The notes beneath the pieces are model-generated. The model was not told the origin of the DNA. It did not search any database and worked only from the letters and a program-made list of their open reading frames with translations. 17,346 bases of DNA from a virus. Where the stretch lies: UHGV virus genome UHGV-1699866. One strand, 5' to 3'. Shown here in pieces: positions 3,996-15,357 of this stretch (within the stretch, counting starts at the first letter, position 1; each line of letters starts with the position of its first letter). The position numbers and the translations under genes were made by a program.

Positions 3996-4336
3996 ATCGG
4001 CATTCCTCTGTTAGTATTAACAGTGAGAGTTATTTCCAATACACCAACATTATCTGATACTTCATCAACAATATAATTTTTACCGTTGATTTTCATTGAC
4101 TGGTCTTTGACAGGGAGAACAGGAAAATCTTTTCTTGAAACAAATAATATTATTTGCCCCTGATTTATTCCCTCTGCAAACTCAGCATATGAGCGTTTAT
4201 TCCGCTCATGAATAAGGTCTGTATCAATAACGGCAAGGATATCCTTGCCGTCTATGTTATATGTATCGGCAAACTCTTTTTCATTGAGGAATATTGCAGA
4301 AATATCTTGCGCTATAACCTCTTTGAAGGAGTTCAT
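3992..4336 (-). CDS. Putative head-tail adaptor / head closure protein (lambda FII-like by size and position)
   Basis: 114 aa, located after the capsid gene and a small ORF; ATGA-type overlap with the upstream gene. Confidence 0.4.
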   Translation of the reverse strand: MNSFKEVIAQDISAIFLNEKEFADTYNIDGKDILAVIDTDLIHERNKRSYAEFAEGINQGQIILFVSRKDFPVLPVKDQSMKINGKNYIVDEVSDNVGVLEITLTVNTNRGMPI

Positions 4337-6185: not shown

Positions 6186-7274
6186 TTAATTTTTATCGCG
6201 GTTTTTAAATACTGACCCAATAACATTTTTTACTGCTTCAGCCTGTTTGTTGCCGTTGTTTTCTGGTTGATTAACATCAACTGAATCATTCACCTCACTT
6301 GCGTCTTCTTGCCGTTGATTAAGAAAGTTTTTGTTACGCGCTCGCTCTGCATTCATAATTTCCAAAGCAAGTTCAGCCGCAGAAACTCCTGTTTTGAATT
6401 TTGCATTCTTAACCAGGTCGTCATGACCAGGAATCACGCTATTCTCGATTGTTTCAATGCGCTCGCGTTCTGATTTAACGCCCTCGTCTTTACCAGCATT
6501 AAAAACCTGATTGTATAATTCTGGATATTTATTTTTTAATTCATCAAGAGTCACAATATCGTCCTCATTTTGTTCATTTGATTCAGTAGATAACTCATTT
6601 TTATTTTGCGGCAACTTTGCGAGTGAATCAGGTAATTTTGAAAACCTTGATGCTTCAAAAGTTATTCCATTAAGCGAAAGCATCCCTTCCTTTATAGAAG
6701 CGGATAAGCGTATTGGTTTTTCAACTTCGTCAGCAAATCCAAGCTCTACAGCCTCTTCTGCATTTAGCCATGTTTCCTGATCCATTAGTTCAATTAATTT
6801 ATCCTCAGAAAGCCCTGTTTTCTCCTTATATGCAGATAAAATACTATTGCGTATCTTATCCATCATCTCAGCAATATCACGCAATTCATCCGCATCGCCA
6901 GCAGCAAATATCCACGGATTATGGATCATCATCATAGCATTAGATGGGATAATAATTTTATCACCCGCCATTGCAATAATAGTTGCAGCCGATGCAGCAA
7001 TCCCGTCGATATAAACCGTAATATTCGCCTTATGACGCTTTAATGATGAAAGAATAGCTTGAGCAGTAAAAACAGAACCACCATAACTATTAATTTTTAC
7101 GTTGATAGTATTTGATGAAATATCCTTTAATTTATTAACTATGTCAGAAGAAGAAACCTCATCAAATTCACCAATATACCCGTAAATTAAAAGTTCAGCC
7201 GGAGAGTCATCTTCACCCGTGCTATTTTTTATTTCCCACCAATTAGGCATCATCAGTCTCCATATTTTGTTCAT
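6186..7274 (-). CDS. Head maturation protease (ClpP/S49-like serine protease) with C-terminal scaffold-like domain
   Basis: ClpP-like motifs GIAASAATIIAMAGD (catalytic Ser) and MMMIHNPW (His); C-terminal half is charged, low-complexity and coiled-coil-like, as in the lambda C/Nu3 arrangement. Confidence 0.75.
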   Translation of the reverse strand: MNKIWRLMMPNWWEIKNSTGEDDSPAELLIYGYIGEFDEVSSSDIVNKLKDISSNTINVKINSYGGSVFTAQAILSSLKRHKANITVYIDGIAASAATIIAMAGDKIIIPSNAMMMIHNPWIFAAGDADELRDIAEMMDKIRNSILSAYKEKTGLSEDKLIELMDQETWLNAEEAVELGFADEVEKPIRLSASIKEGMLSLNGITFEASRFSKLPDSLAKLPQNKNELSTESNEQNEDDIVTLDELKNKYPELYNQVFNAGKDEGVKSERERIETIENSVIPGHDDLVKNAKFKTGVSAAELALEIMNAERARNKNFLNQRQEDASEVNDSVDVNQPENNGNKQAEAVKNVIGSVFKNRDKN

Positions 7275-8817
7275 TTACCTCAGAAACAGGAGGTGTAATA
7301 AGCCCCAACTCACGGCGAGCATTCTCTTCTCTGCCACAGATTTGTGCGGTTTCTTCCCAGTTAAGACCTGACATTTCAGCCGCTTCTTTTTCACGGGTAG
7401 AGAATGTTTCCTCAACACGCAGTTTTGCAGCTTTGACTTCTTTAAGGGGATCTAATTGGCCTTGTGATGGGCCATACCATTGAGCGCCACTCCATGCAGC
7501 GCGATATTCAGGCCCATAAAAAAAACCAGGGGCAATAACACGACCTTTAGCAACGGCTTCGGCCAACCATTCCTCATAGATCGGTTGGCAAAATGACTGA
7601 ACCATCCAGTCACGTCGCATACGGAACATTTTCCAGGCTTCAAGTAATGCGGCCCTGCTTGCGCTATAACTTGCTGTAAAATGCTTTACCAAGAGTTCGT
7701 AAGGGAGTTCTAAAGCAGCCCCAATTTGACGGCATATGGCGACAACAAAACCATCAAATGCCGTATTTGGTCGCCCGGGATTTGCTGTATCTATCGACTC
7801 ACCTTCACCCAAACTTACTATGGAGCCATTCCCCATTTCTTGGGTGTTATTATCATGGTTATCGATCTGCTCGTACTGAGGGATACCCGATTCACCGACT
7901 GGCCCATCAGGAGCGTCTGTTTTAATAAAGACAGTAAACATCCCTGACACAACCGCAGCAACCAATTCAGCATCGGTGTATCGTCCTAACTGCTTCAATG
8001 CTTCAATTACAGGAGCAAGGACAGGAACGCCACGGCGTTGCCCAGGCCTTTCAAAATCCTGCATGACATGCAGAATATTTCTTCTTCCTGTTTTACTCCC
8101 ATATGCGGGAATACGTTCCCACTTGCGGGTTACAAAACCAGAAGTCCCGGCTGGGTGATGTTTTGCAACCCAGTACGCCACAGGCTCGCTAAATTCACCA
8201 ACCTCTACGCCACCGTAAAGATTTGGTATAAAACGATCCTCTGGATTGCAAACACGATCACCTTCAATTAAATAGACGCACAAATCATATATAACACCCT
8301 TACGCTTAATAACTGGTAGCGCAGCAAATATATCGCCAGATGTTAACGCAGATATTTGGACCAATGATTGCAATTGTCCAAAAGTACACATTCTTGATGC
8401 ATCACAATTTGGAGAATCAGCCCATAATCTAAACTCACGCTCAACATGCTTTTCCCATGCTCGCGCTTCTTCCTGCGTCATCCCCAAGAAATCGGCATCA
8501 ATGTTCGCATTTAGTTTTAAACCGGAACCAACAACGTTTGTCCTGATAGTTTTTATTGCGCCAACAGATAGCGGGTTTCCCATGAAGAGATCACGAGAAC
8601 GCTCACGCAATTTATCTATATTTTTAACAATATCATCATCAGGAGAACCAGCTTTACTAAACCAACCCCTTAATGATTTTTTATGAGTGCTTGCACCATG
8701 ACGTGAATATCCAAGGTTATTAATACCTTCAAGTGCTTCTAACCGTTTTCTTGCCAAAGCTCGATTTAATGCCCTCTGAGGTGAAAACGGCGCAATAACT
8801 CGATCAAGAATATTCAT
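7243..8817 (-). CDS. Portal protein (lambda gpB family)
   Basis: 524 aa (lambda gpB is 533 aa); lies between the W-like gene and the protease; 32-nt overlap with the protease gene. Confidence 0.8.
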   Translation of the reverse strand: MNILDRVIAPFSPQRALNRALARKRLEALEGINNLGYSRHGASTHKKSLRGWFSKAGSPDDDIVKNIDKLRERSRDLFMGNPLSVGAIKTIRTNVVGSGLKLNANIDADFLGMTQEEARAWEKHVEREFRLWADSPNCDASRMCTFGQLQSLVQISALTSGDIFAALPVIKRKGVIYDLCVYLIEGDRVCNPEDRFIPNLYGGVEVGEFSEPVAYWVAKHHPAGTSGFVTRKWERIPAYGSKTGRRNILHVMQDFERPGQRRGVPVLAPVIEALKQLGRYTDAELVAAVVSGMFTVFIKTDAPDGPVGESGIPQYEQIDNHDNNTQEMGNGSIVSLGEGESIDTANPGRPNTAFDGFVVAICRQIGAALELPYELLVKHFTASYSASRAALLEAWKMFRMRRDWMVQSFCQPIYEEWLAEAVAKGRVIAPGFFYGPEYRAAWSGAQWYGPSQGQLDPLKEVKAAKLRVEETFSTREKEAAEMSGLNWEETAQICGREENARRELGLITPPVSEVNEQNMETDDA

Positions 8818-9064: not shown

Positions 9065-10921
9065 CTATATGGTTACGCCTTTACTTATAACTCTACGGCG
9101 TCTTCTACGTATACCTGACGAGTTCTGCACATACACATTACCTCGCATTTCCTGTTCGGCAAGCCAGTTAAAATTAGGGTTCAGAATTTCCATCGCGGCA
9201 GTTGCATAGTTACGGCAATCAAGAGGCTCGTTACGCTCGTAGACTTTCACCCACTTTTCTTTTGTCTGCCCATTTTTATATTCAAATATTTTTTTCTCTG
9301 ATAATAATCCTTTAAAGTATTCGGTATCATATCCTCTGTCAGAATCTAATGGGAAATGCATATAACCAGGACCAGGATCATGTAGTTTAATTCTTGCCAT
9401 GATGGTCCCTTTACCATCATCAACCCCCAAATTAAACAACATAGCACCCACACGGTTATTATTACTTGGCTTTCCTATAAATGGTAAACCTACCCCACCA
9501 CGCCCCCTGATAGAGTATATTCGCCTTGATTCTCTCGGCTTAGTAAAGCGATATACCTCTGTCGTAAAATGCCCACCAGAGTCAATACAAACGGAAGAAA
9601 TCTGTAATTTTCGACCGTCACGGAATGACCAGCTACGGAGTAAGTATTCATCAAGTTGTTTCCAGACAACATCTTGTGCGGGATCACCTGGGAATATTTT
9701 ATATTCTATCCCCCATGACTCCTTACCTTTTCCCCAACCGACCAATTCACAAACTAAATACGTGTCCTGTACGTCAACACCAGCACTTAACAATAAAACA
9801 TCATCTGGTAAAAACTCTTCAAACCTTATTCTGCGTTGCAACAAGTATTCAGGATCGATATCGTCTTTAGCATCCTCTTTCCATGGCTCACCCAGCTTAA
9901 GGTTAATAAACTCCATTAATCCATTTTTATCGCGGTTTCTGGTTGCTTCCGTAAATTCTTCAACCAGCTCTGACAATGCAACCCACGGGGAGTAAAGACT
10001 GTTAATATGAAAACCAACAATACCTTTAACTCCAGTATGTTCAGCTATCCATACCCCCTTCGCCAACCAATCAACGTCTGGTTTACCAGATCCGCGCATA
10101 ATCCCGCCGCACTCACAGCACTCATATCTGGCCGTTTCCGGTAACGCCTCACCTGAATCGCTCTTATCCCATCTGACTTGCGACCATTTCATCACCTGCA
10201 TGGTGCCACAACATGGGCAAGGAACATGGTAGTAACGCTGATCGGAGAGCTTAAACCACTTGTGGATTTTGCTTGTTTCCTCCAAAACAGGAGTAGAAAC
10301 AAAAACTTTCTTACGATTATGAAAGTTGGTAGTACGCTGAATACCTAGTTTTAGTGGGTCGCCCTCCTGCGTCACACCGTAACGATCAATCTCATCAGCT
10401 AACAGTATTCGAATTGGCCTGGATGCAAGACCTGCTGGGGAATTAGCACCAACAAGTGCTATATATCCACCAGCGTAATGCTTCATACGTATAGTCGTGC
10501 TGGACTTTTTGGCTGCACCGCGCCCCTCTTTCCCTTCATGCAGCTTGTGTTTCAAACCAGGGGAATATTTGAACGTCGGATCAATACGCTCTTTTGAAAA
10601 AGCCTCAGCCGCCTCTACCGTTGGATAAATCATCAACTGAGGAGATGGCTCCTGATCTGCAAAGTAACCCATAACATTTAGCTGTAATTCGGATTTACCA
10701 ATTTGCGAGCTACATTGCATCACTACTGTTTCTGTATCAGCGTCACCAATAACATCCATTGGTTCACGCAAATATGGCACTCGGCTTGTACGCCACGGCC
10801 CTGGCTCTGGAGACGTTCCCGGCGCTACATGACGATACTTATCAGCCCATTCGGAAACAGTTAGCCGTGATTTAGGGCGAAGCGCACGGAAAAAAGCGGT
10901 GCTCCATACTGTTTCGCCCAT
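9065..10921 (-). CDS. Terminase large subunit, lambda gpA family
   Basis: 618 aa; Walker-A-like QCSSQIGKSE; VPCPCCG (cf. lambda VACPHCG), CIDSGG (cf. CWDTGG) and NEPLDC (cf. NEALDC). Confidence 0.85.
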   Translation of the reverse strand: MGETVWSTAFFRALRPKSRLTVSEWADKYRHVAPGTSPEPGPWRTSRVPYLREPMDVIGDADTETVVMQCSSQIGKSELQLNVMGYFADQEPSPQLMIYPTVEAAEAFSKERIDPTFKYSPGLKHKLHEGKEGRGAAKKSSTTIRMKHYAGGYIALVGANSPAGLASRPIRILLADEIDRYGVTQEGDPLKLGIQRTTNFHNRKKVFVSTPVLEETSKIHKWFKLSDQRYYHVPCPCCGTMQVMKWSQVRWDKSDSGEALPETARYECCECGGIMRGSGKPDVDWLAKGVWIAEHTGVKGIVGFHINSLYSPWVALSELVEEFTEATRNRDKNGLMEFINLKLGEPWKEDAKDDIDPEYLLQRRIRFEEFLPDDVLLLSAGVDVQDTYLVCELVGWGKGKESWGIEYKIFPGDPAQDVVWKQLDEYLLRSWSFRDGRKLQISSVCIDSGGHFTTEVYRFTKPRESRRIYSIRGRGGVGLPFIGKPSNNNRVGAMLFNLGVDDGKGTIMARIKLHDPGPGYMHFPLDSDRGYDTEYFKGLLSEKKIFEYKNGQTKEKWVKVYERNEPLDCRNYATAAMEILNPNFNWLAEQEMRGNVYVQNSSGIRRRRRRVISKGVTI

Positions 10922-10926
10922 GAGGT

Positions 10927-11478
10927 TTATTCTTCCTGCTTAATAAATCGGGATTCCTGGAGCGCCTGAAGCGCAAAATTAATCTCGTCTTCAATAATGC
11001 GCTCGATCTCCCTGGCTGTTTTGCCTTCACAACGGGGAGCTGCTCTTGGAGCAATACTAAATAAGCGGCTACGCAATTCATTAGCTGCCAGAAATGCATC
11101 ATCCCTGACCGCATCTTTAGCGATGAGAGAGCCTTCCTTTTCTTCAAATTCAAGGCGTTTCAGCTTTGCCTGATAAATTTTTTCTGCGGTCTTAGCCTTG
11201 TTGAATTGCACCGCAACACCGGAAGTACCACCAGCTAATCCGGCATCATCAGCGGGTAACTCTGGTTGTTCCGAAGATATCCCATGCCCTCTTTTTCCAT
11301 TTTCAGCAGATACCTCACGACCAACCTGTCGGCTCGCTTCATAAGCCGCACTGGCTTTATCAAAATCCAGCTTGCCGCTTTTCAGCACTGGAATGCGACC
11401 GGAACGACAGAGCTTCGTAACCATTGCCGGAGAAATACCTTTCCGGCGGGCAAACTCTGACTTACTGACGATGGCCAT
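10927..11478 (-). CDS. Terminase small subunit (Nu1-like, N-terminal helix-turn-helix)
   Basis: Helix-turn-helix SKSEFARRKGISPAMVTKLCRSGRIPV near the N-terminus; directly upstream of the large subunit; ATG at 11478-11476 overlaps the upstream stop (TAATG). Track start at 11487 is TTG. Confidence 0.55.
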   Translation of the reverse strand: MAIVSKSEFARRKGISPAMVTKLCRSGRIPVLKSGKLDFDKASAAYEASRQVGREVSAENGKRGHGISSEQPELPADDAGLAGGTSGVAVQFNKAKTAEKIYQAKLKRLEFEEKEGSLIAKDAVRDDAFLAANELRSRLFSIAPRAAPRCEGKTAREIERIIEDEINFALQALQESRFIKQEE

Positions 11479-12068
11479 TACTTGCAACCATTAGCAAGAT
11501 ACTGAACAAATCCCTCATGCGTTTCATGCGCGTCGTGGTACTGACGATAAACATCCAGCAACAATGCAATTTCCATATCCGTCGCGGGAATACGTTCTTT
11601 ATCAATAGCCAGGTACTTAATTTGAACAACAGGGGAAGAATTATCGTCTTCTTCCTGCGGCTGTTCATCGCTTAACATTTCGTCAAGCTCTGCATCATTA
11701 AACCCAAGCAGATCAATATCAAAATCATCATCCATTAACTCTTTGACTTCTTCGGCCAGAAGCTGCATATCCCAGCCAGCATTTAAGGCCAGCTTGTTAT
11801 CTGCAATCCTGTAAGCCTTCTTCTGTTTTTCAGAAAGGTTACTCAACCGAATCGCCGGAACTTTATCCATTTCCAGAATTTCGGCTGCTGCAAGCCGCCC
11901 ATGCCCCGCAATCAGTTCATTCTTTTCATCGATCAGCACAGGATTAGTGAAACCGAACTCACGGATACTGTTCACCAACTGTTCAACTTGCTCATCTGAA
12001 TGAGTCCGTGAATTTTTGGCATATCTGAGCAACTTACCGACTGGTAAATATTCGATTTTTAGAGCCAT
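11478..12068 (-). CDS. ParB-like nuclease (ParB/Srx N-terminal) domain protein, paralog 1
   Basis: ParB-N signature ...NPVLIDEKNELIAGHGRLAAA...; translationally coupled to the small terminase gene. Confidence 0.7.
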   Translation of the reverse strand: MALKIEYLPVGKLLRYAKNSRTHSDEQVEQLVNSIREFGFTNPVLIDEKNELIAGHGRLAAAEILEMDKVPAIRLSNLSEKQKKAYRIADNKLALNAGWDMQLLAEEVKELMDDDFDIDLLGFNDAELDEMLSDEQPQEEDDNSSPVVQIKYLAIDKERIPATDMEIALLLDVYRQYHDAHETHEGFVQYLANGCK

Positions 12069-12624
12069 TTTTTAACCGCCATAACACAACAGGTTAAAGA
12101 AAACTGTTTAACTTATTGATACTAAAAGAGAAAAATGACGATCTTTTTACTCATGAAAAATCACACAAACCAGCATAATTATCTGATTTTATTAAGTTTT
12201 TATAAGTAAAAAGGATCTTGCGATGGTGTTTTGGTTAAAAGATTGGATGTATTTGCATGATTTATAACGATTTTTATCAGAACAACATCACATTGGTTAA
12301 AGATCTGCGCGTATCTTGATGATCTAAAAGAAAATTTTCCACTTTCTTTTTACCAGCACAAATACAGAAAAAATCACGTTTTCCCGATATTTTTCAATGA
12401 GATGAGTAAATTTCTTTTACCGCAACTTTTAACCTAACTTTTTTCACGTTTAGCTAGCCGAATATCGGGGTTCGAATGACCCGCATCCAACGCTTTTGTC
12501 CAGAAGGACCCAATTCTGCCGGACGATGAAACGATGCTCGTGCTCCCCCACAGACAGCCAGCGAGCGACGCTACAGAACACAGTGAATACACTCTGCATA
12601 ACAACACCATCAACCACACGATGA
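12069..12624. promoter_or_regulatory. 556-bp non-coding region: GC-rich block (about 12435-12620) plus AT-rich block (about 12069-12434) with iterated motifs; candidate cos/pac and promoter region
   Basis: Only sizeable gap in a dense operon; sits immediately upstream of the ParB-like/terminase genes; contains GGTTAAA x5, a duplicated about 45-bp unit and four GATC sites. Confidence 0.4.
12348..12465. repeat. Imperfect direct repeat (two units, about 67-70 bp apart) of form TTTTACC-GCA-C ... TCACGTTT ... CCGA(A)TAT
   Basis: Unit A about 12348-12390 (TCACGTTT at 12374-12381), unit B about 12415-12465 (TCACGTTT at 12444-12451); read directly from the sequence. Confidence 0.5.
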
Positions 12625-13344
12625 TTAACGAGAGAAGGTCTTGGAAAGAATGTCATCAATAGCCTTTGTGACTTCATCAGCAAACGCATCCTCACCAGCA
12701 CGCAGCGCCACGCCATGCCAATCAAGACGCTGCGAATAGTTAGGTTGCTGGATAAACGTAAGGATCAACGTAGGACGCCGCCCAACGCGCTGCCAGACGC
12801 CTGGTTGAAGCGGGTTACTTGTACCAGGTCGAACAACAAAAAACTCCGTAGGCTTGCCCTGACGGCGATTTTGATGCGCATCTCGCTGAACTCTTAGGCC
12901 AGATAAGACCTGCTGTAATTGCCCCCGCGAAATATTCCCGTATTTGTCCAGCTTTGCGCCGGGACCAGGAGCAATCTGCCAGCCGTTAGGCAAATATCCA
13001 CCAGCCCTTAGCGCCCCTTCTGAGCGTTTGTACTGTCGTTGGCCACCTTCGATTTGCGGAGTCAACGTTACAGGGGCTGGCGTTCCTCCCCATTCACGAG
13101 CATACACAATGGCTGTAGGATCACTCTTCTTTGCGGCCAAAACGTAAGTAGAGTTCTGAATCCACGGCGTGGGCCTGTCAAATACCCGATTAATTTCATT
13201 CTTAATCGCAGCCTGAGAAGCCTTTGCCGTTCTGGTTGCCGCAAGCGCCATTGCGAACGGCAATTCGCGTTCTTCAAGGCGCTGGAGTTGTCGTTGAATA
13301 TCCTGAGAAGAAAAATCCATCTTTATCTCAATTCTGTCAGCCAC
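12625..13344 (-). CDS. Hypothetical protein (239 aa), function unknown; third gene of the ParB-methyltransferase cassette
   Basis: GTG start with strong RBS (TAGGAGG, 5-nt spacer), 16 nt after the upstream stop; Gly/Pro/Arg/Gln-rich; GC visibly higher than the structural genes. Confidence 0.6.
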   Translation of the reverse strand: MADRIEIKMDFSSQDIQRQLQRLEERELPFAMALAATRTAKASQAAIKNEINRVFDRPTPWIQNSTYVLAAKKSDPTAIVYAREWGGTPAPVTLTPQIEGGQRQYKRSEGALRAGGYLPNGWQIAPGPGAKLDKYGNISRGQLQQVLSGLRVQRDAHQNRRQGKPTEFFVVRPGTSNPLQPGVWQRVGRRPTLILTFIQQPNYSQRLDWHGVALRAGEDAFADEVTKAIDDILSKTFSR

Positions 13345-13360
13345 CAGCGCCTCCTACACA

Positions 13361-14734
13361 CTACTTAATCAACGGCCGGAAAGCCGCCAGCACATCATCA
13401 GATCGTCCGATTGTTGAACCACCAGGCAACGGCAACTCAAACTCAAAACGAACAGCTTTCTCCAGACTCGCCCAACTAAGGGAATCATCGTTAATGACGT
13501 GCAAATACCAGCTCTTACAGTTGAATATTGACCGCTTAATCCTGAAACCATGTACACGACACAACTGCTTCACTTCCTCATCAGAGTGAAACTTCTGGTA
13601 AAACCAGTGCCCCTTCCGGTACAACGCGGTAAAACCGTCATGATCAATAAAATAAAGCCGGCTTTTGGAACTCGCCGCTTGTGTTTGCTTCAGGACTGTT
13701 TCCAGTTCTCCACGGCTACGGCCAGAAAAGAATATTGACCCACCAGCTTTACACAGGCCTTTCAGAACCGTCAGAACGGACCATTCAGCCTCGACACTAT
13801 CGACCGAGTTCAAAACGCTATCGCAAATCACGTAGTCGTAACGCCCTCGCGTTTTTAAGTCGTCCACCAGCGTATCAATCATCCGGTTTGTTGCGGCCCT
13901 ATCCAGAGTGTTTCCAGCGCCCTTACGGCGGAAAAGCTCGAGATCATGCAGGTTATATCCCTTTGCCCTGAGCATTCGCGCGTAGTCTCCCTGCCCCGAA
14001 CCAAAATCAATTCCTCTTGGCGTCTTGGCAATGATCGGGAGGATCAACGACTCATACAGATTTGATTTCAGGCTGCCACCATTACGCAACCGCATAAGCT
14101 GCGCATACGTCTGGATGTATGTTGTTTTCTCCAGATGAGAATACTCAAATACACCATAAGTTTTATTCAGATAACTTTGGTATTTTTCCTTCTCAACATC
14201 AGGGATCACAAACACCGTTAGCGGTGTGCGCGTCATTTTCGCTGCTAATGCATACTGAGCACAGTGAATAACCTCACCAGACTGAGTAGCAACACAACCA
14301 CCCCACGGACCATACTTGATAACCAGTTCCGCTATGTTCTTTCGAACATATGCCATTTTCGCGCGCATATTGCCTGAGATCTGGCTTGCCGATACCTGAA
14401 CAAAACCATGCTTATCTTCCAGACCGGACACCCTGCAACGCTCATCTCCGCTATCAAAATCCGTTCCGTTATGCAGTTGGTTAAACCGTACTTCGTCGTA
14501 TACCGTCGTTTCACAGGGCAACACATACACCGCAGCACGCGTTATTCCCAACTTACGTAGCGCCTTCGTCCTTTGGTGTCCCGCCACCAGCAAATCGCCG
14601 CGCACTATCAATGGCTTCACAAGCCCCAGCTCCCTGACGCTTTCCGCCAGCCTCGCAAGATCATCCTCACCGATAAAACGCGGGTTATATTCCGCGCCGC
14701 GTAGGTGCGTTATGTCGTAATTGAGGTGAAGCAT
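13361..14734 (-). CDS. Fusion protein: N-terminal ParB/Srx-like domain plus C-terminal class-I SAM-dependent methyltransferase domain
   Basis: N-terminus YNPR...LVKPLIVRGDLLVAGHQRTKALRKLG (ParB-N); C-terminal half has SAM motif I GIDFGSGQGD and YDYVICDSVLNSV; ATG at 14734-14732 overlaps the upstream stop (TGATG). Confidence 0.7.
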   Translation of the reverse strand: MLHLNYDITHLRGAEYNPRFIGEDDLARLAESVRELGLVKPLIVRGDLLVAGHQRTKALRKLGITRAAVYVLPCETTVYDEVRFNQLHNGTDFDSGDERCRVSGLEDKHGFVQVSASQISGNMRAKMAYVRKNIAELVIKYGPWGGCVATQSGEVIHCAQYALAAKMTRTPLTVFVIPDVEKEKYQSYLNKTYGVFEYSHLEKTTYIQTYAQLMRLRNGGSLKSNLYESLILPIIAKTPRGIDFGSGQGDYARMLRAKGYNLHDLELFRRKGAGNTLDRAATNRMIDTLVDDLKTRGRYDYVICDSVLNSVDSVEAEWSVLTVLKGLCKAGGSIFFSGRSRGELETVLKQTQAASSKSRLYFIDHDGFTALYRKGHWFYQKFHSDEEVKQLCRVHGFRIKRSIFNCKSWYLHVINDDSLSWASLEKAVRFEFELPLPGGSTIGRSDDVLAAFRPLIK

Positions 14735-15357
14735 CAGCACACCTCCCCAGCCAGCAATGCGGATACAAATCCGATATAGCTGCCATTATCATCAACATAA
14801 CGAGACACCGCGCAGTCAAAACGATCCGCTTCCTCATCCGTTGCCGGGATTTTATGACCTCCAAATGACAGGTACTGAACTTTTACGCCTGATTTGGCCT
14901 CATCCTTCTCAAATGGGATATCCATACCCTCTGTGTCATCGTAGACTGCCGCACTCAATAAGTTATCCAGTTCGCGCTGAGTAAAACCAATTGAGTCCAG
15001 AGCAAAATCATCGGCCGCAAGATCTGCAAGCTCCGCGCTTAACAACTCTTCATCCCAACCAGCATTCAGCGGAATACGGTTGTCGGCCAGACGATATGCC
15101 TTCTTCTGATTCTCCGTTAGCCCAGCCAGAACAATGCAGGGAACATCATCCATCCCCAACTGAGTGGCCGCAGCAATTCGACCATGACCAGCAATTACAA
15201 CGTTGTTCTCGTCTATCAGGATCGGATTAGTCCATCCGTACTCCTGTATGCTGGCAACAATCTGATCTACCTGCTCCACGGAGTGTGTGCGAGCGTTCTT
15301 TTCATAACCAATCAACACAGAAAGTGGTAAAGAAACCACATTAAGATGTTTTGTCAT
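14734..15357 (-). CDS. ParB-like nuclease (ParB/Srx N-terminal) domain protein, paralog 2
   Basis: ...NPILIDENNVVIAGHGRIAAA...; about half of the first ~125 aligned residues identical to the 196-aa paralog by eye (not computed). Confidence 0.7.
   Translation of the reverse strand: MTKHLNVVSLPLSVLIGYEKNARTHSVEQVDQIVASIQEYGWTNPILIDENNVVIAGHGRIAAATQLGMDDVPCIVLAGLTENQKKAYRLADNRIPLNAGWDEELLSAELADLAADDFALDSIGFTQRELDNLLSAAVYDDTEGMDIPFEKDEAKSGVKVQYLSFGGHKIPATDEEADRFDCAVSRYVDDNGSYIGFVSALLAGEVC

Follow-up and report, generated by a model that had tools for sequence, protein, structure and literature searches.

The DNA analysed here (the window) is a stretch of 17,346 nucleotides from the UHGV virus genome UHGV-1699866, in which the minus strand carries all the long open reading frames (ORFs). 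Two of these ORFs, at 11478-12068 and 12625-13344 (both minus strand), exactly bound a gap at 12069-12624, the longest in the window, and the ORF list thus agrees with the original prediction, made by a model from the letters alone, of a single long gap upstream of ParB-like and terminase genes. On the coding strand the order is a ParB/Srx gene (207 aa), a fusion of ParB with a methyltransferase (459 aa), a gene referred to as p239, the gap, another ParB/Srx gene (196 aa), the terminase genes terS and terL, and the genes for a DUF6148 protein and a lambda-family portal. The 2-kb stretch around the gap shows 100% identity with the 47,715-bp circular plasmid pMB9698_3 of E. coli strain 4973. Since this plasmid encodes RepA, a ParA cassette, toxin-antitoxin genes and a lysis cassette together with virion genes, namely a lambda-type head and packaging module and a P2-type contractile tail, the element is a phage-plasmid.

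In phage lambda the cos site is arranged as cosQ, cosN and cosB, the last containing R3, I1, R2 and R1, and is served by the terminase gpNu1/gpA. Here we present evidence that the gap is very probably a cos of this lambda type (cosQ-cosN-cosB), belonging to a temperate myovirus maintained as a circular plasmid of ~47.7 kb. The location and length of the cohesive end, the spacing of cosQ, the conservation of the region, and the enrichment and co-variation of its repeated sites were computed here; the protein that would bind these sites, a role for integration host factor (IHF) and the function of cosQ are proposed by analogy with known phages. On the minus strand the layout would read as a variable spacer, cosQ, 23 bp, cosN and then an AT-rich cosB, ~400 bp long, that holds eight or more GGT(T)AAA(A)G sites. 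Positions are numbered on this minus (coding) strand, with cos bp 1 at window 12481 and bp n at window 12482-n, and the features outside cosB are the following:

12069-12624, minus strand: the whole candidate cos region, intergenic in the ORF list; the gap is kept between the p239 and ParB-like genes in ~20 relatives.
12512-12624, minus strand: variable non-coding spacer from the p239 stop to cosQ, poorly conserved, with non-triplet indels among relatives.
12505-12511, minus strand: cosQ-like heptamer GGGTCCT, cos bp -30 to -24, a predicted packaging-termination signal on the basis of spacing, uniqueness and conservation.
12470-12481, minus strand: putative cosN cohesive-end sequence GGTCATTCGAAC, cos bp 1-12, where virion-derived records start 12 nt apart; most conserved block.
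11478-12068, minus strand: protein of 196 aa with a ParB/Srx N-terminal domain, between cosB and terS (Pfam ParB_N, E = 3.8e-8, residues 15-86 only; PHROG 620).
10927-11478, minus strand: TerS, 183 aa, with an N-terminal winged-helix-like helix-turn-helix (HTH), the predicted binder of the S sites described below (PHROG 57, E = 7e-42).
9065-10921, minus strand: TerL of the lambda gpA type (Pfam GpA_ATPase, E = 7.1e-76; GpA_nuclease, E = 1.1e-84), ~28% identical to lambda-like and N15 TerL, predicted to nick cosN and to translocate DNA.

The position of the DNA ends was read from relatives of the element. Three phages isolated on Yersinia pestis EV76, vB_YpM_39, _41 and _44 (OR545053-55), are 98-99% identical to the window over the gap region. 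The records of vB_YpM_39 and _41 begin at window position 12481 with GGTCATTCGAACCCCG... and end with ...TTGGATGCG (...GGATGCG), and the record of vB_YpM_44 begins at 12469 with CCCGATG... and ends with ...GGATGCGGGTCATTCGAAC, that is, at the 12-mer GGTCATTCGAAC. The two cut points are exactly 12 nt apart, bracket this 12-mer, fall inside an invariant core and lie 400 bp from any gene start, as expected if each Yersinia record had been opened at one nick of a 12-nt cohesive end. The minus strand would be nicked at 12482^12481 and the plus strand at 12470^12469 (the caret marks a nick).

Two contigs from more distant relatives (TerL ~58% identical in both) also have an end at this position. Contig JBJEVY010000029.1 (L036) starts at base 1 of the equivalent 12-mer, GGTTGCGCGAAC^CCCAGA, and contig CAAGIL010000179.1 (L030) ends with GCTCTTCCGATCT joined to GGTAGGCGCGGC^CCCGAT, at the equivalent of bp 1. 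The 13-mer GCTCTTCCGATCT is the 3' tail of the Illumina adapter. Because the 12-mer was kept at the left end of both contigs after end repair, it looks like a filled-in 5' overhang, since a 3' overhang would be trimmed. The cohesive ends are most likely 5'-protruding, which is also the polarity common to lambda, N15 and the Serratia phage vB_SspM_BZS1 (for BZS1, PMC7556043). The adapter-bearing contig is also catalogued as IMGVR_UViG_3300045988_118791 (L030/L037, positions 1-13); its untrimmed adapter remnant (GCTCTTCCGATCT/AGATCGGAAGAGC), ligated to a phage DNA end, is a contamination of the record, yet informative on the terminus. A search for the right end of this contig with a 14-mer was too unspecific, giving >120 random matches. 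When viral contigs were scanned with the cos core for contig ends, 27 matches were obtained, nearly all of them prophage or plasmid copies from isolate genomes, and none ended at cos. A genome-length metagenome contig, OJJP01000130.1 (48,228 bp; L074), has its end at cos bp +29, 17 nt beyond the 12-mer, which is weakly suggestive, a random break so near cosN being unlikely.

These ends bear directly on the idea, also raised by the original prediction, that the gap is a pac site for headful packaging, with the array of repeated sites as the pac recognition region. The gap does adjoin the terminase genes and does contain iterated sites. However, the TerL is of the gpA type, whose characterised relatives make 12-nt cohesive ends, the ends of records and contigs, obtained independently, are not permuted but occupy two fixed positions separated by 12 nt, and the cosQ heptamer stands at the lambda spacing. 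With a terminase of this type and ends that are defined, we regard a pac site as barely conceivable and dismiss this option.

The sequence around the nicks is also informative. The flanks GCG^GGT and C^CCCGA are constant across the relatives while the interior of the 12-mer varies, which is the pattern described for the cosN of lambda-like phages, where the base pairs at the nicks are conserved and positions 7-12 are variable (PMC4669245). In those phages 5'-CG-3' flanks both nick positions (PMC4669245). Here the left flank, ...GCG^GG, has CG at the nick, and the right flank, ...AAC^CCCG, has CC, with CCCG conserved across the family.

Upstream of cosN, 23 nt separate the end of the heptamer GGGTCCT from the top-strand nick, and an equal spacing was measured in lambda (NC_001416, counted to the genome end of the record) and in N15 (AF064539, after subtracting the 12-mer repeated at the right end). 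The heptamer is unique in the window on both strands, the signature GGGTCCT-N21-CGGG-N10-C occurs once in the plasmid, and the chance of finding a given 7-mer at a fixed offset is ~6e-5. The arrangement persists in L032 and L033, whose TerL proteins are 50% and 61% identical to that of the window, as GGGTCCT-N23-^GGTACTCGCGAC^CCCGAA and GGGTCCT-N23-^GGTCGGACGAGC^CCCGAA, respectively. Natural variants stand at the same offset of 23 nt in other relatives: AGGTACT in L023 (3264-3270) and L034 (~4250-4256), which are mutually unrelated, and GGTTCCT in L029 (4250-4256). In lambda-like phages cosQ is a highly conserved 7-bp site in which natural variation is not apparent (PMC4669245). The lambda fragment bp 48446-182 includes cosQ. 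The exact lambda cosQ is said to have been given by Wieczorek and Feiss in 2001 as GGGTCCT, at 48473-48479. By analogy, the heptamer described here may act in the termination of packaging.

The region is well preserved in the family. Some 20 relatives, with TerL proteins 77-91% identical, keep p239, a gap of ~510-660 bp, the ParB-like gene, TerS and TerL; the exception is L024, in which an additional ~1.7 kb separates the p239 gene from cos and brings the gap to 2,268 bp (L024:1570-3860). The best-conserved block in the gap alignment, at window ~12516-12425, reads TTTGGGTCCTTCTGG..AAAGCGTTG.ATGCGGGTCATTCGAACCCCGA...CTAGCT...AAAAGTTAGGTTAAAAGT, and the same cos core was found in 13 further metagenome contigs. 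The original prediction had overlooked this most conserved part of the gap, around 12454-12516.

Downstream of cosN the dominant feature is a family of short repeated words. The original prediction had listed GGTTAAA at 12092, 12233 and 12295 on the plus strand, with its complement TTTAACC at 12071 and 12428, and these positions proved correct, as did the two occurrences of the longer word TTGGTTAAA(A)GAT, at 12231 and 12293. GGTTAAA is present in five copies in the 556 bp of the gap against 0.17 expected, a count that none of 5000 dinucleotide-preserving shuffles reached, and in just two copies in the remaining 16.8 kb of the window. With the broader pattern GGT(T)AAA(A)(A)G there are 6 sites in the gap versus 22 in the other 47.2 kb of the plasmid, a 23-fold higher density that makes the gap the top cluster of the plasmid (other AT-rich windows have at most 2). 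The motif family is also larger than had been listed, and includes GGTAAAAG at 12421-12414, GGTAAAAAG at 12354-12346 and the GTAAAAAG variants at 12213-12206 and 12150-12143. We designate eight of these words S1 to S8:

12454-12457, minus strand: conserved CTAG, cos bp 25-28, in the interval matching lambda I2; found at an identical offset in every relative, even where TerL is ~50-60% identical (L023, L029, L030, L032, L033, L034, L036).
12426-12434, minus strand: S1, GGTTAAAAG, cos bp 48-56, direct, the R3 equivalent and predicted principal TerS site; invariant in 12 of 12 aligned relatives, with GGTTAACAA at bp 48 in L023.
12414-12421, minus strand: S2, GGTAAAAG, cos bp 61-68, direct; position kept in relatives, with GTTAACAA at bp 63 in L023.
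12346-12354, minus strand: S3, GGTAAAAAG, cos bp 128-136, direct; GGTTAACAA at bp 130 in L023.
12295-12302, plus strand: S4, GGTTAAAG, cos bp 180-187, inverted and dispensable, lying within the 90 bp missing in the viable vB_YpM_44.
12233-12241, plus strand: S5, GGTTAAAAG, cos bp 241-249, inverted; TTGTTAACC at bp 258 in L023.
12206-12213, plus strand: S6, variant GTAAAAAG, cos bp 269-276, inverted, the outer part of a 31-nt imperfect inverted repeat.
12176-12188, minus strand: IHF-consensus-like AATCAGATAATTA, cos bp 294-306, between S6 and S7, with 1 mismatch to WATCAANNNNTTR; the segment AAAATCAG..ATTA is kept in relatives.
12143-12150, minus strand: S7, variant GTAAAAAG, cos bp 332-339, direct; kept as GGGTAAAAAG in the L009 group.
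12109-12121, minus strand: perfect IHF consensus TATCAATAAGTTA, cos bp 361-373, flanked by S7 and S8, which point in opposite directions; one of 3 perfect matches in the 17.3-kb window, and perfect here in L020 and L023 too.
12092-12099, plus strand: S8, GGTTAAAG, cos bp 383-390, inverted; position kept, as CGGTAAAAG in the L009 group and GGTTAACAA in L023.
12071-12077, minus strand: GGTTAAA over the ribosome-binding region of the ParB-like gene, cos bp 405-411; not conserved in relatives and probably non-functional.

In this array, which would form cosB, the first three sites are direct (bp 48, 61 and 128) and the remainder mostly inverted, with the two IHF-consensus sites among the distal ones; the IHF matches are distal to cosN and none lies between S1-S3 and S4. 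The ATG of the ParB-like gene follows at cos bp 414. In N15, R3 is at bp 48-59 and is described as 'positioned similarly to R3-lambda' (PMC4669245), so S1, at bp 48-56, occupies the R3 position. Around S6 and S7 we observed a 31-nt imperfect inverted repeat (12143-12173 and 12183-12213; 74% complementary, with a 9-nt spacer and GATC at both outer ends) that brackets the IHF-like site and could be an operator or an architectural element for TerS and IHF.

A further comparison involved L023, in which TerS is 56% identical and the start of the predicted recognition helix has changed from SPAM to SRPA. Its cosB interval contains zero words of the type found in the window, and instead carries 11 GTTAAC-type sites at matching positions (48, 63, 130, 183 and 258 onwards); the other 11.3 kb of the L023 locus has 4 GTTAAC. 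Such a concerted change of the sites is characteristic of a protein that recognises specific sequences and co-evolves with them. The ParB-like protein of L023 (66% identical) has diverged too, so this co-variation does not separate the ParB-like protein from TerS. Another candidate natural experiment, L021, with an unchanged gap and a TerS 49% identical, was rejected because its TerS gene is frameshifted. The frameshifts are at two places (L021:4424-4963), and represent either a pseudogene or a sequencing error.

Natural variation also indicated which sites can be lost. Phage vB_YpM_44 (L067, OR545055.1, positions 1-325) lacks 90 bp, corresponding to cos bp 139-228 (window 12254-12343), and with them S4 and the GATCs at 12302 and 12321. 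Since this phage is viable, S4, these two GATCs and the spacing between S3 and S5 are dispensable.

The remaining compositional claims of the original prediction fared less well. Of the GC-rich block said to be followed by an AT-rich block, the AT-rich part stands (12069-12469, 0.30 GC), and the 'GC-rich' part is mild (12470-12624, 0.53, the whole window averaging 0.44). The four GATC sites were confirmed but show no enrichment (4 versus 1.66 expected, p = 0.07), and two of them fall in the 90-bp stretch deleted in the viable vB_YpM_44. The supposed direct repeat of about 45 bp came down to a shared octamer, TCACGTTT, plus CCGA, with identity at 26 of the 50 aligned columns; its score was attained in 2.4% of shuffles, and its second copy is not conserved in relatives.

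An AT-rich region (0.30 GC) with repeated short words, four GATC and IHF-like sites might also suggest a replication origin, with iterons and an unwinding region, used for lytic or plasmid replication. We find this very improbable, since repA is ~24 kb away on the plasmid, the site word clusters nowhere else on it, no DnaA boxes are present, GATC is not enriched and two GATCs are missing in a viable phage, and the evidence from the genome ends, cosQ and the R3 position is specific to packaging.

A further question is which protein reads the array, as a ParB/Srx gene begins directly after it and three ParB_N proteins are encoded within 3.3 kb. The whole GGT(T)AAAAG array, or its distal part (bp ~240-390), could be bound by the adjacent ParB/Srx protein or one of its two paralogs, serving as a parS-like loading site for an accessory packaging or DNA-modification factor. 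That ParB-like genes also occur with the terminase module in distant relatives, that the ParB-like protein of L023 diverged together with the sites, and that the array is far longer than the cosB of lambda all fit this proposal. Nevertheless, the 196-aa protein consists of a ParB N-terminal domain only (residues 15-86), with PDB matches confined to the N-domains of ParB and Noc, and neither Pfam nor PDB searches detected an HTH DNA-binding domain in it. The site words are asymmetric and are not parS palindromes: as the original prediction had stated, there is no canonical parS, the best match to TGTTNCACGTGAAACA having 4 mismatches, and the sole perfect palindrome of at least 10 nt is GAAAATTTTC. 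Moreover, S1 is exactly at the R3 position of lambda and N15; L032, L033, L029 and L034 keep cos with no ParB gene between it and terS, which starts ~70-170 bp after cosN; and the partition cassette of the plasmid (ParA and a small partner) is 16 kb away. The idea of a ParB-binding array, one of those raised originally, has thus gained no positive support, and we consider binding of the array by a ParB/Srx protein rather unlikely.

A combination of both proteins is conceivable, in a composite cosB in which TerS reads the three proximal sites and the ParB/Srx protein loads at the distal inverted ones, although we rate this as quite unlikely. In such a composite, the ParB/Srx protein might be a nucleotide-dependent clamp, a nuclease or a modification factor, acting with the upstream ParB-methyltransferase fusion, and would cooperate with the terminase in cos recognition, end protection or methylation during packaging. 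If true, this would make a ParB-family protein an integral, site-specific part of a cos packaging machine, outside the lambda paradigm.

As a separate observation, ParB/Srx genes accompany the terminase module at variable positions. In the window they are at 11478-12068, 13361-14740 (the fusion with an S-adenosylmethionine (SAM) methyltransferase) and 14734-15357; in L035 one lies upstream of terS (1564-2325), and in L029 and L034 just downstream of terL (~6879-7300).

The distal part of the gap could also have a second function in addition to cos. In this view bp ~260-413 would control transcription of the ParB-like gene, terS and terL as a regulated promoter or an operator, with the inverted GTAAAAAG pair and the IHF sites as operator or architectural elements. 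This would account for the 31-nt imperfect inverted repeat that brackets a conserved IHF-like site and for the perfect IHF consensus 40 bp upstream of the ATG, in a segment that is conserved in relatives and retained in the deletion variant vB_YpM_44. On the other hand, the scan gave zero sigma-70-like promoters in the region where 2.1 would be expected from shuffled sequence, the upstream operon lacks a terminator at its end, and there is no P2-type activator site (TGT-N12-ACA). The genes from the lysis cassette onward are co-oriented, as in lambda, where late transcription reads through cos, and the words found here are of the S1-S3 family and are altered along with S1-S3 in L023. Such a dual role is in our view unlikely, but it is the alternative that we take most seriously. 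As for the late promoter that the original prediction had placed in the gap, no sigma-70-like promoter, terminator or P2-type activator site was found there, so that this option is neither supported nor excluded.

The remaining option of the original prediction, a lambda-type cos with a GC-richer cosN followed by an AT-rich cosB with iterated sites, is the one that the results strongly support, with cosQ at 12511-12505, cosN at 12481-12470 and cosB from ~12434 downwards. For this cos, TerS is the natural candidate for binding the S sites. A single-sequence AlphaFold2 model of TerS is confident for residues 1-50 only (pLDDT ~88), and there predicts a strand, two helices and a wing; the protein also gives a weak, sub-threshold match to Pfam HTH_17. 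The HTH segment is collinear with that of gpNu1 (VSKSEFARRKGISPAMVTKLCRSGRIPV versus VNKKQLADIFGASIRTIQNWQEQGMPV), with an hhalign probability of 6% and E = 0.006 against gpNu1 and N15 gp1. A Foldseek search of the PDB with the TerS model listed only non-significant matches of the MerR/Xis type, gpNu1 not among them, and a sequence search of the PDB with TerS returned only noise.

Putting these elements together, we propose that after induction TerS would bind the sites through its N-terminal winged HTH, with S1 critical and the distal sites accessory, and that bound TerS would anchor TerL for nicking at cosN. The gpA-type TerL would make two nicks staggered by 12 bp, generating the sticky end GGTCATTCGAAC. 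Packaging would then proceed through the ParB-like gene, terS and terL, that is, toward lower window coordinates, until the next cos is reached, where the cut that terminates packaging would be directed by cosQ and cosN. Once injected, the DNA would become the plasmid again by annealing and ligation of its 12-nt ends.

Several points weigh against this interpretation. The cut points are ends of records and contigs of relatives and do not come from mapping the ends of packaged DNA of the element itself; the Yersinia records are flagged as circular, and the choice of their starts is undocumented. The polarity of the ends relies on two contigs of distant relatives and on analogy with gpA-type terminases, the Yersinia records fitting either polarity. 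The right nick is followed by CC and not by the conserved CG, and GGTCATTCGAAC matches the lambda cohesive end GGGCGGCGACCT at 3 of 12 positions only; the element is outside the narrow lambda-like sticky-end group of Feiss et al., though lambda-cos-like in its working. A relationship between TerS and gpNu1 was not demonstrated, given the hhalign probability of 6% and a Foldseek search of the PDB that gave no significant match. In addition, cosB is ~3x as long as in lambda and a ParB-like gene stands between it and terS, and the distal sites (bp 240-390) might therefore belong to a promoter or be bound by some other protein. Finally, the phage can lose one of the sites, S4; R1 of lambda and rR2 of N15 are likewise accessory (PMC4669245).

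Comparison with characterised systems helps to place the element. Like lambda, it has a gpA-type TerL, a lambda-type portal and a 12-bp nick stagger, with GGGTCCT 23 nt upstream of the nick, CG just 5' of the left nick, GG as the first two sticky-end bases and the first repeat ~48 bp in. As in lambda, too, the repeats have both orientations, and cos is upstream of the terminase genes within a co-oriented late block; the IHF consensus lodged between two opposed sites may be a further parallel, though it stands far from cosN. In contrast to lambda, the sticky end matches at 3 of 12 positions, CC replaces CG after the right nick, and the site word GGT(T)AAAAG is unrelated to the R sequences; cosB spans ~400 bp with at least 8 sites, versus ~120 bp with 3 sites; a ParB-like gene separates cosB from terS; TerS is not detectably a gpNu1 homolog and TerL is ~28% identical; and the tail is P2-type and contractile and the prophage a plasmid. 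For a lambda-type cos, the long cosB and the ParB-like gene inserted between it and terS are unusual.

N15 is a parallel in lifestyle, being a temperate phage with a plasmid prophage and a gpA-type terminase, and it shares the cosQ spacing and a proximal site at bp 48-59 (48-56 here). Its remote inverted site copies are non-essential (PMC4669245), comparable to the dispensable S4. It differs in being a linear plasmid with a protelomerase, a siphovirus tail and nearly the lambda sticky end, and in having two sites only (R3 and the remote inverted rR2), one of them inside terS, without a ParB-like gene in between. Phage BZS1 is, like the element, a myovirus with a gpA-type TerL, 37.5% identical to that of the window, although it integrates into the chromosome and has a different sticky-end sequence. 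Its 12-nt 5' cohesive ends, GCATTGCGCGCC, were determined by PhageTerm, and the 12-bp cos was confirmed by polymerase chain reaction and sequencing (PMC7556043), so that cos sites of this kind do occur in temperate myoviruses. With ParB-parS systems the gap shares a cluster of short repeats beside a gene for a ParB N-terminal domain, and differs in having no palindromic parS, no HTH detected in the protein and no adjacent ParA.

Placing cos to the base shows where the virion DNA begins and ends, and helps to orient and compare the genomes of the family, for which no packaging-site annotation was present in the records of the collections searched; nor did we find a paper on the site, on Yersinia phages vB_YpM_39, _41 and _44 or on the 12-mer. 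Any plasmid given a cos fragment of ~450 bp should become transducible by the phage, a point relevant both to how resistance genes spread and to tools of the cosmid kind. With TerL identity down to ~28%, the cosQ heptamer of lambda is still present at its spacing of 23 bp, while the sticky end and the cosB words have fully changed. A known kind of element is thereby newly located in a clinically widespread phage-plasmid family, and the understanding of the mechanism of cos packaging is unaltered.

Sequences at least 95% identical to the 2-kb region surrounding the gap are present, in single copy, in 72 of 5,426 complete E. coli genomes, that of ATCC 25922 among them, and nearly all are on plasmids of ~47-50 kb. 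The cos core is itself single-copy in each of these 72 genomes, and so no satellites carrying the core are evident.

A few observations on the surroundings and the relatives complete the description. A PHROG search with the small ORFs of the spacer at 12512-12624 and an Rfam scan of 11900-12800 at E <= 1 gave no match, the latter result speaking against an RNA element. Gene p239 (12625-13344) matches PHROG 1924, 'minor tail protein', with E = 3e-97, and is without a Pfam match. This tail label looks unreliable, because the gene lies upstream of cos among ParB and methyltransferase genes and lacks a Pfam match. The relatives L035, L036 and L037 (TerL ~57% identical) come from metagenome-assembled genomes labelled Anaerovoracaceae, Candidatus Spyradenecus and Rikenellaceae; phage contigs binned into such different taxa make these host assignments doubtful. 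The near-identical phages from the Yersinia pestis vaccine strain EV76 imply a host range across genera, and E. coli ATCC 25922, a common quality-control strain, carries a member of the family (NZ_CP009073.1, NZ_CP037450.1, NZ_CP117232.1 and NZ_CP158444.1).

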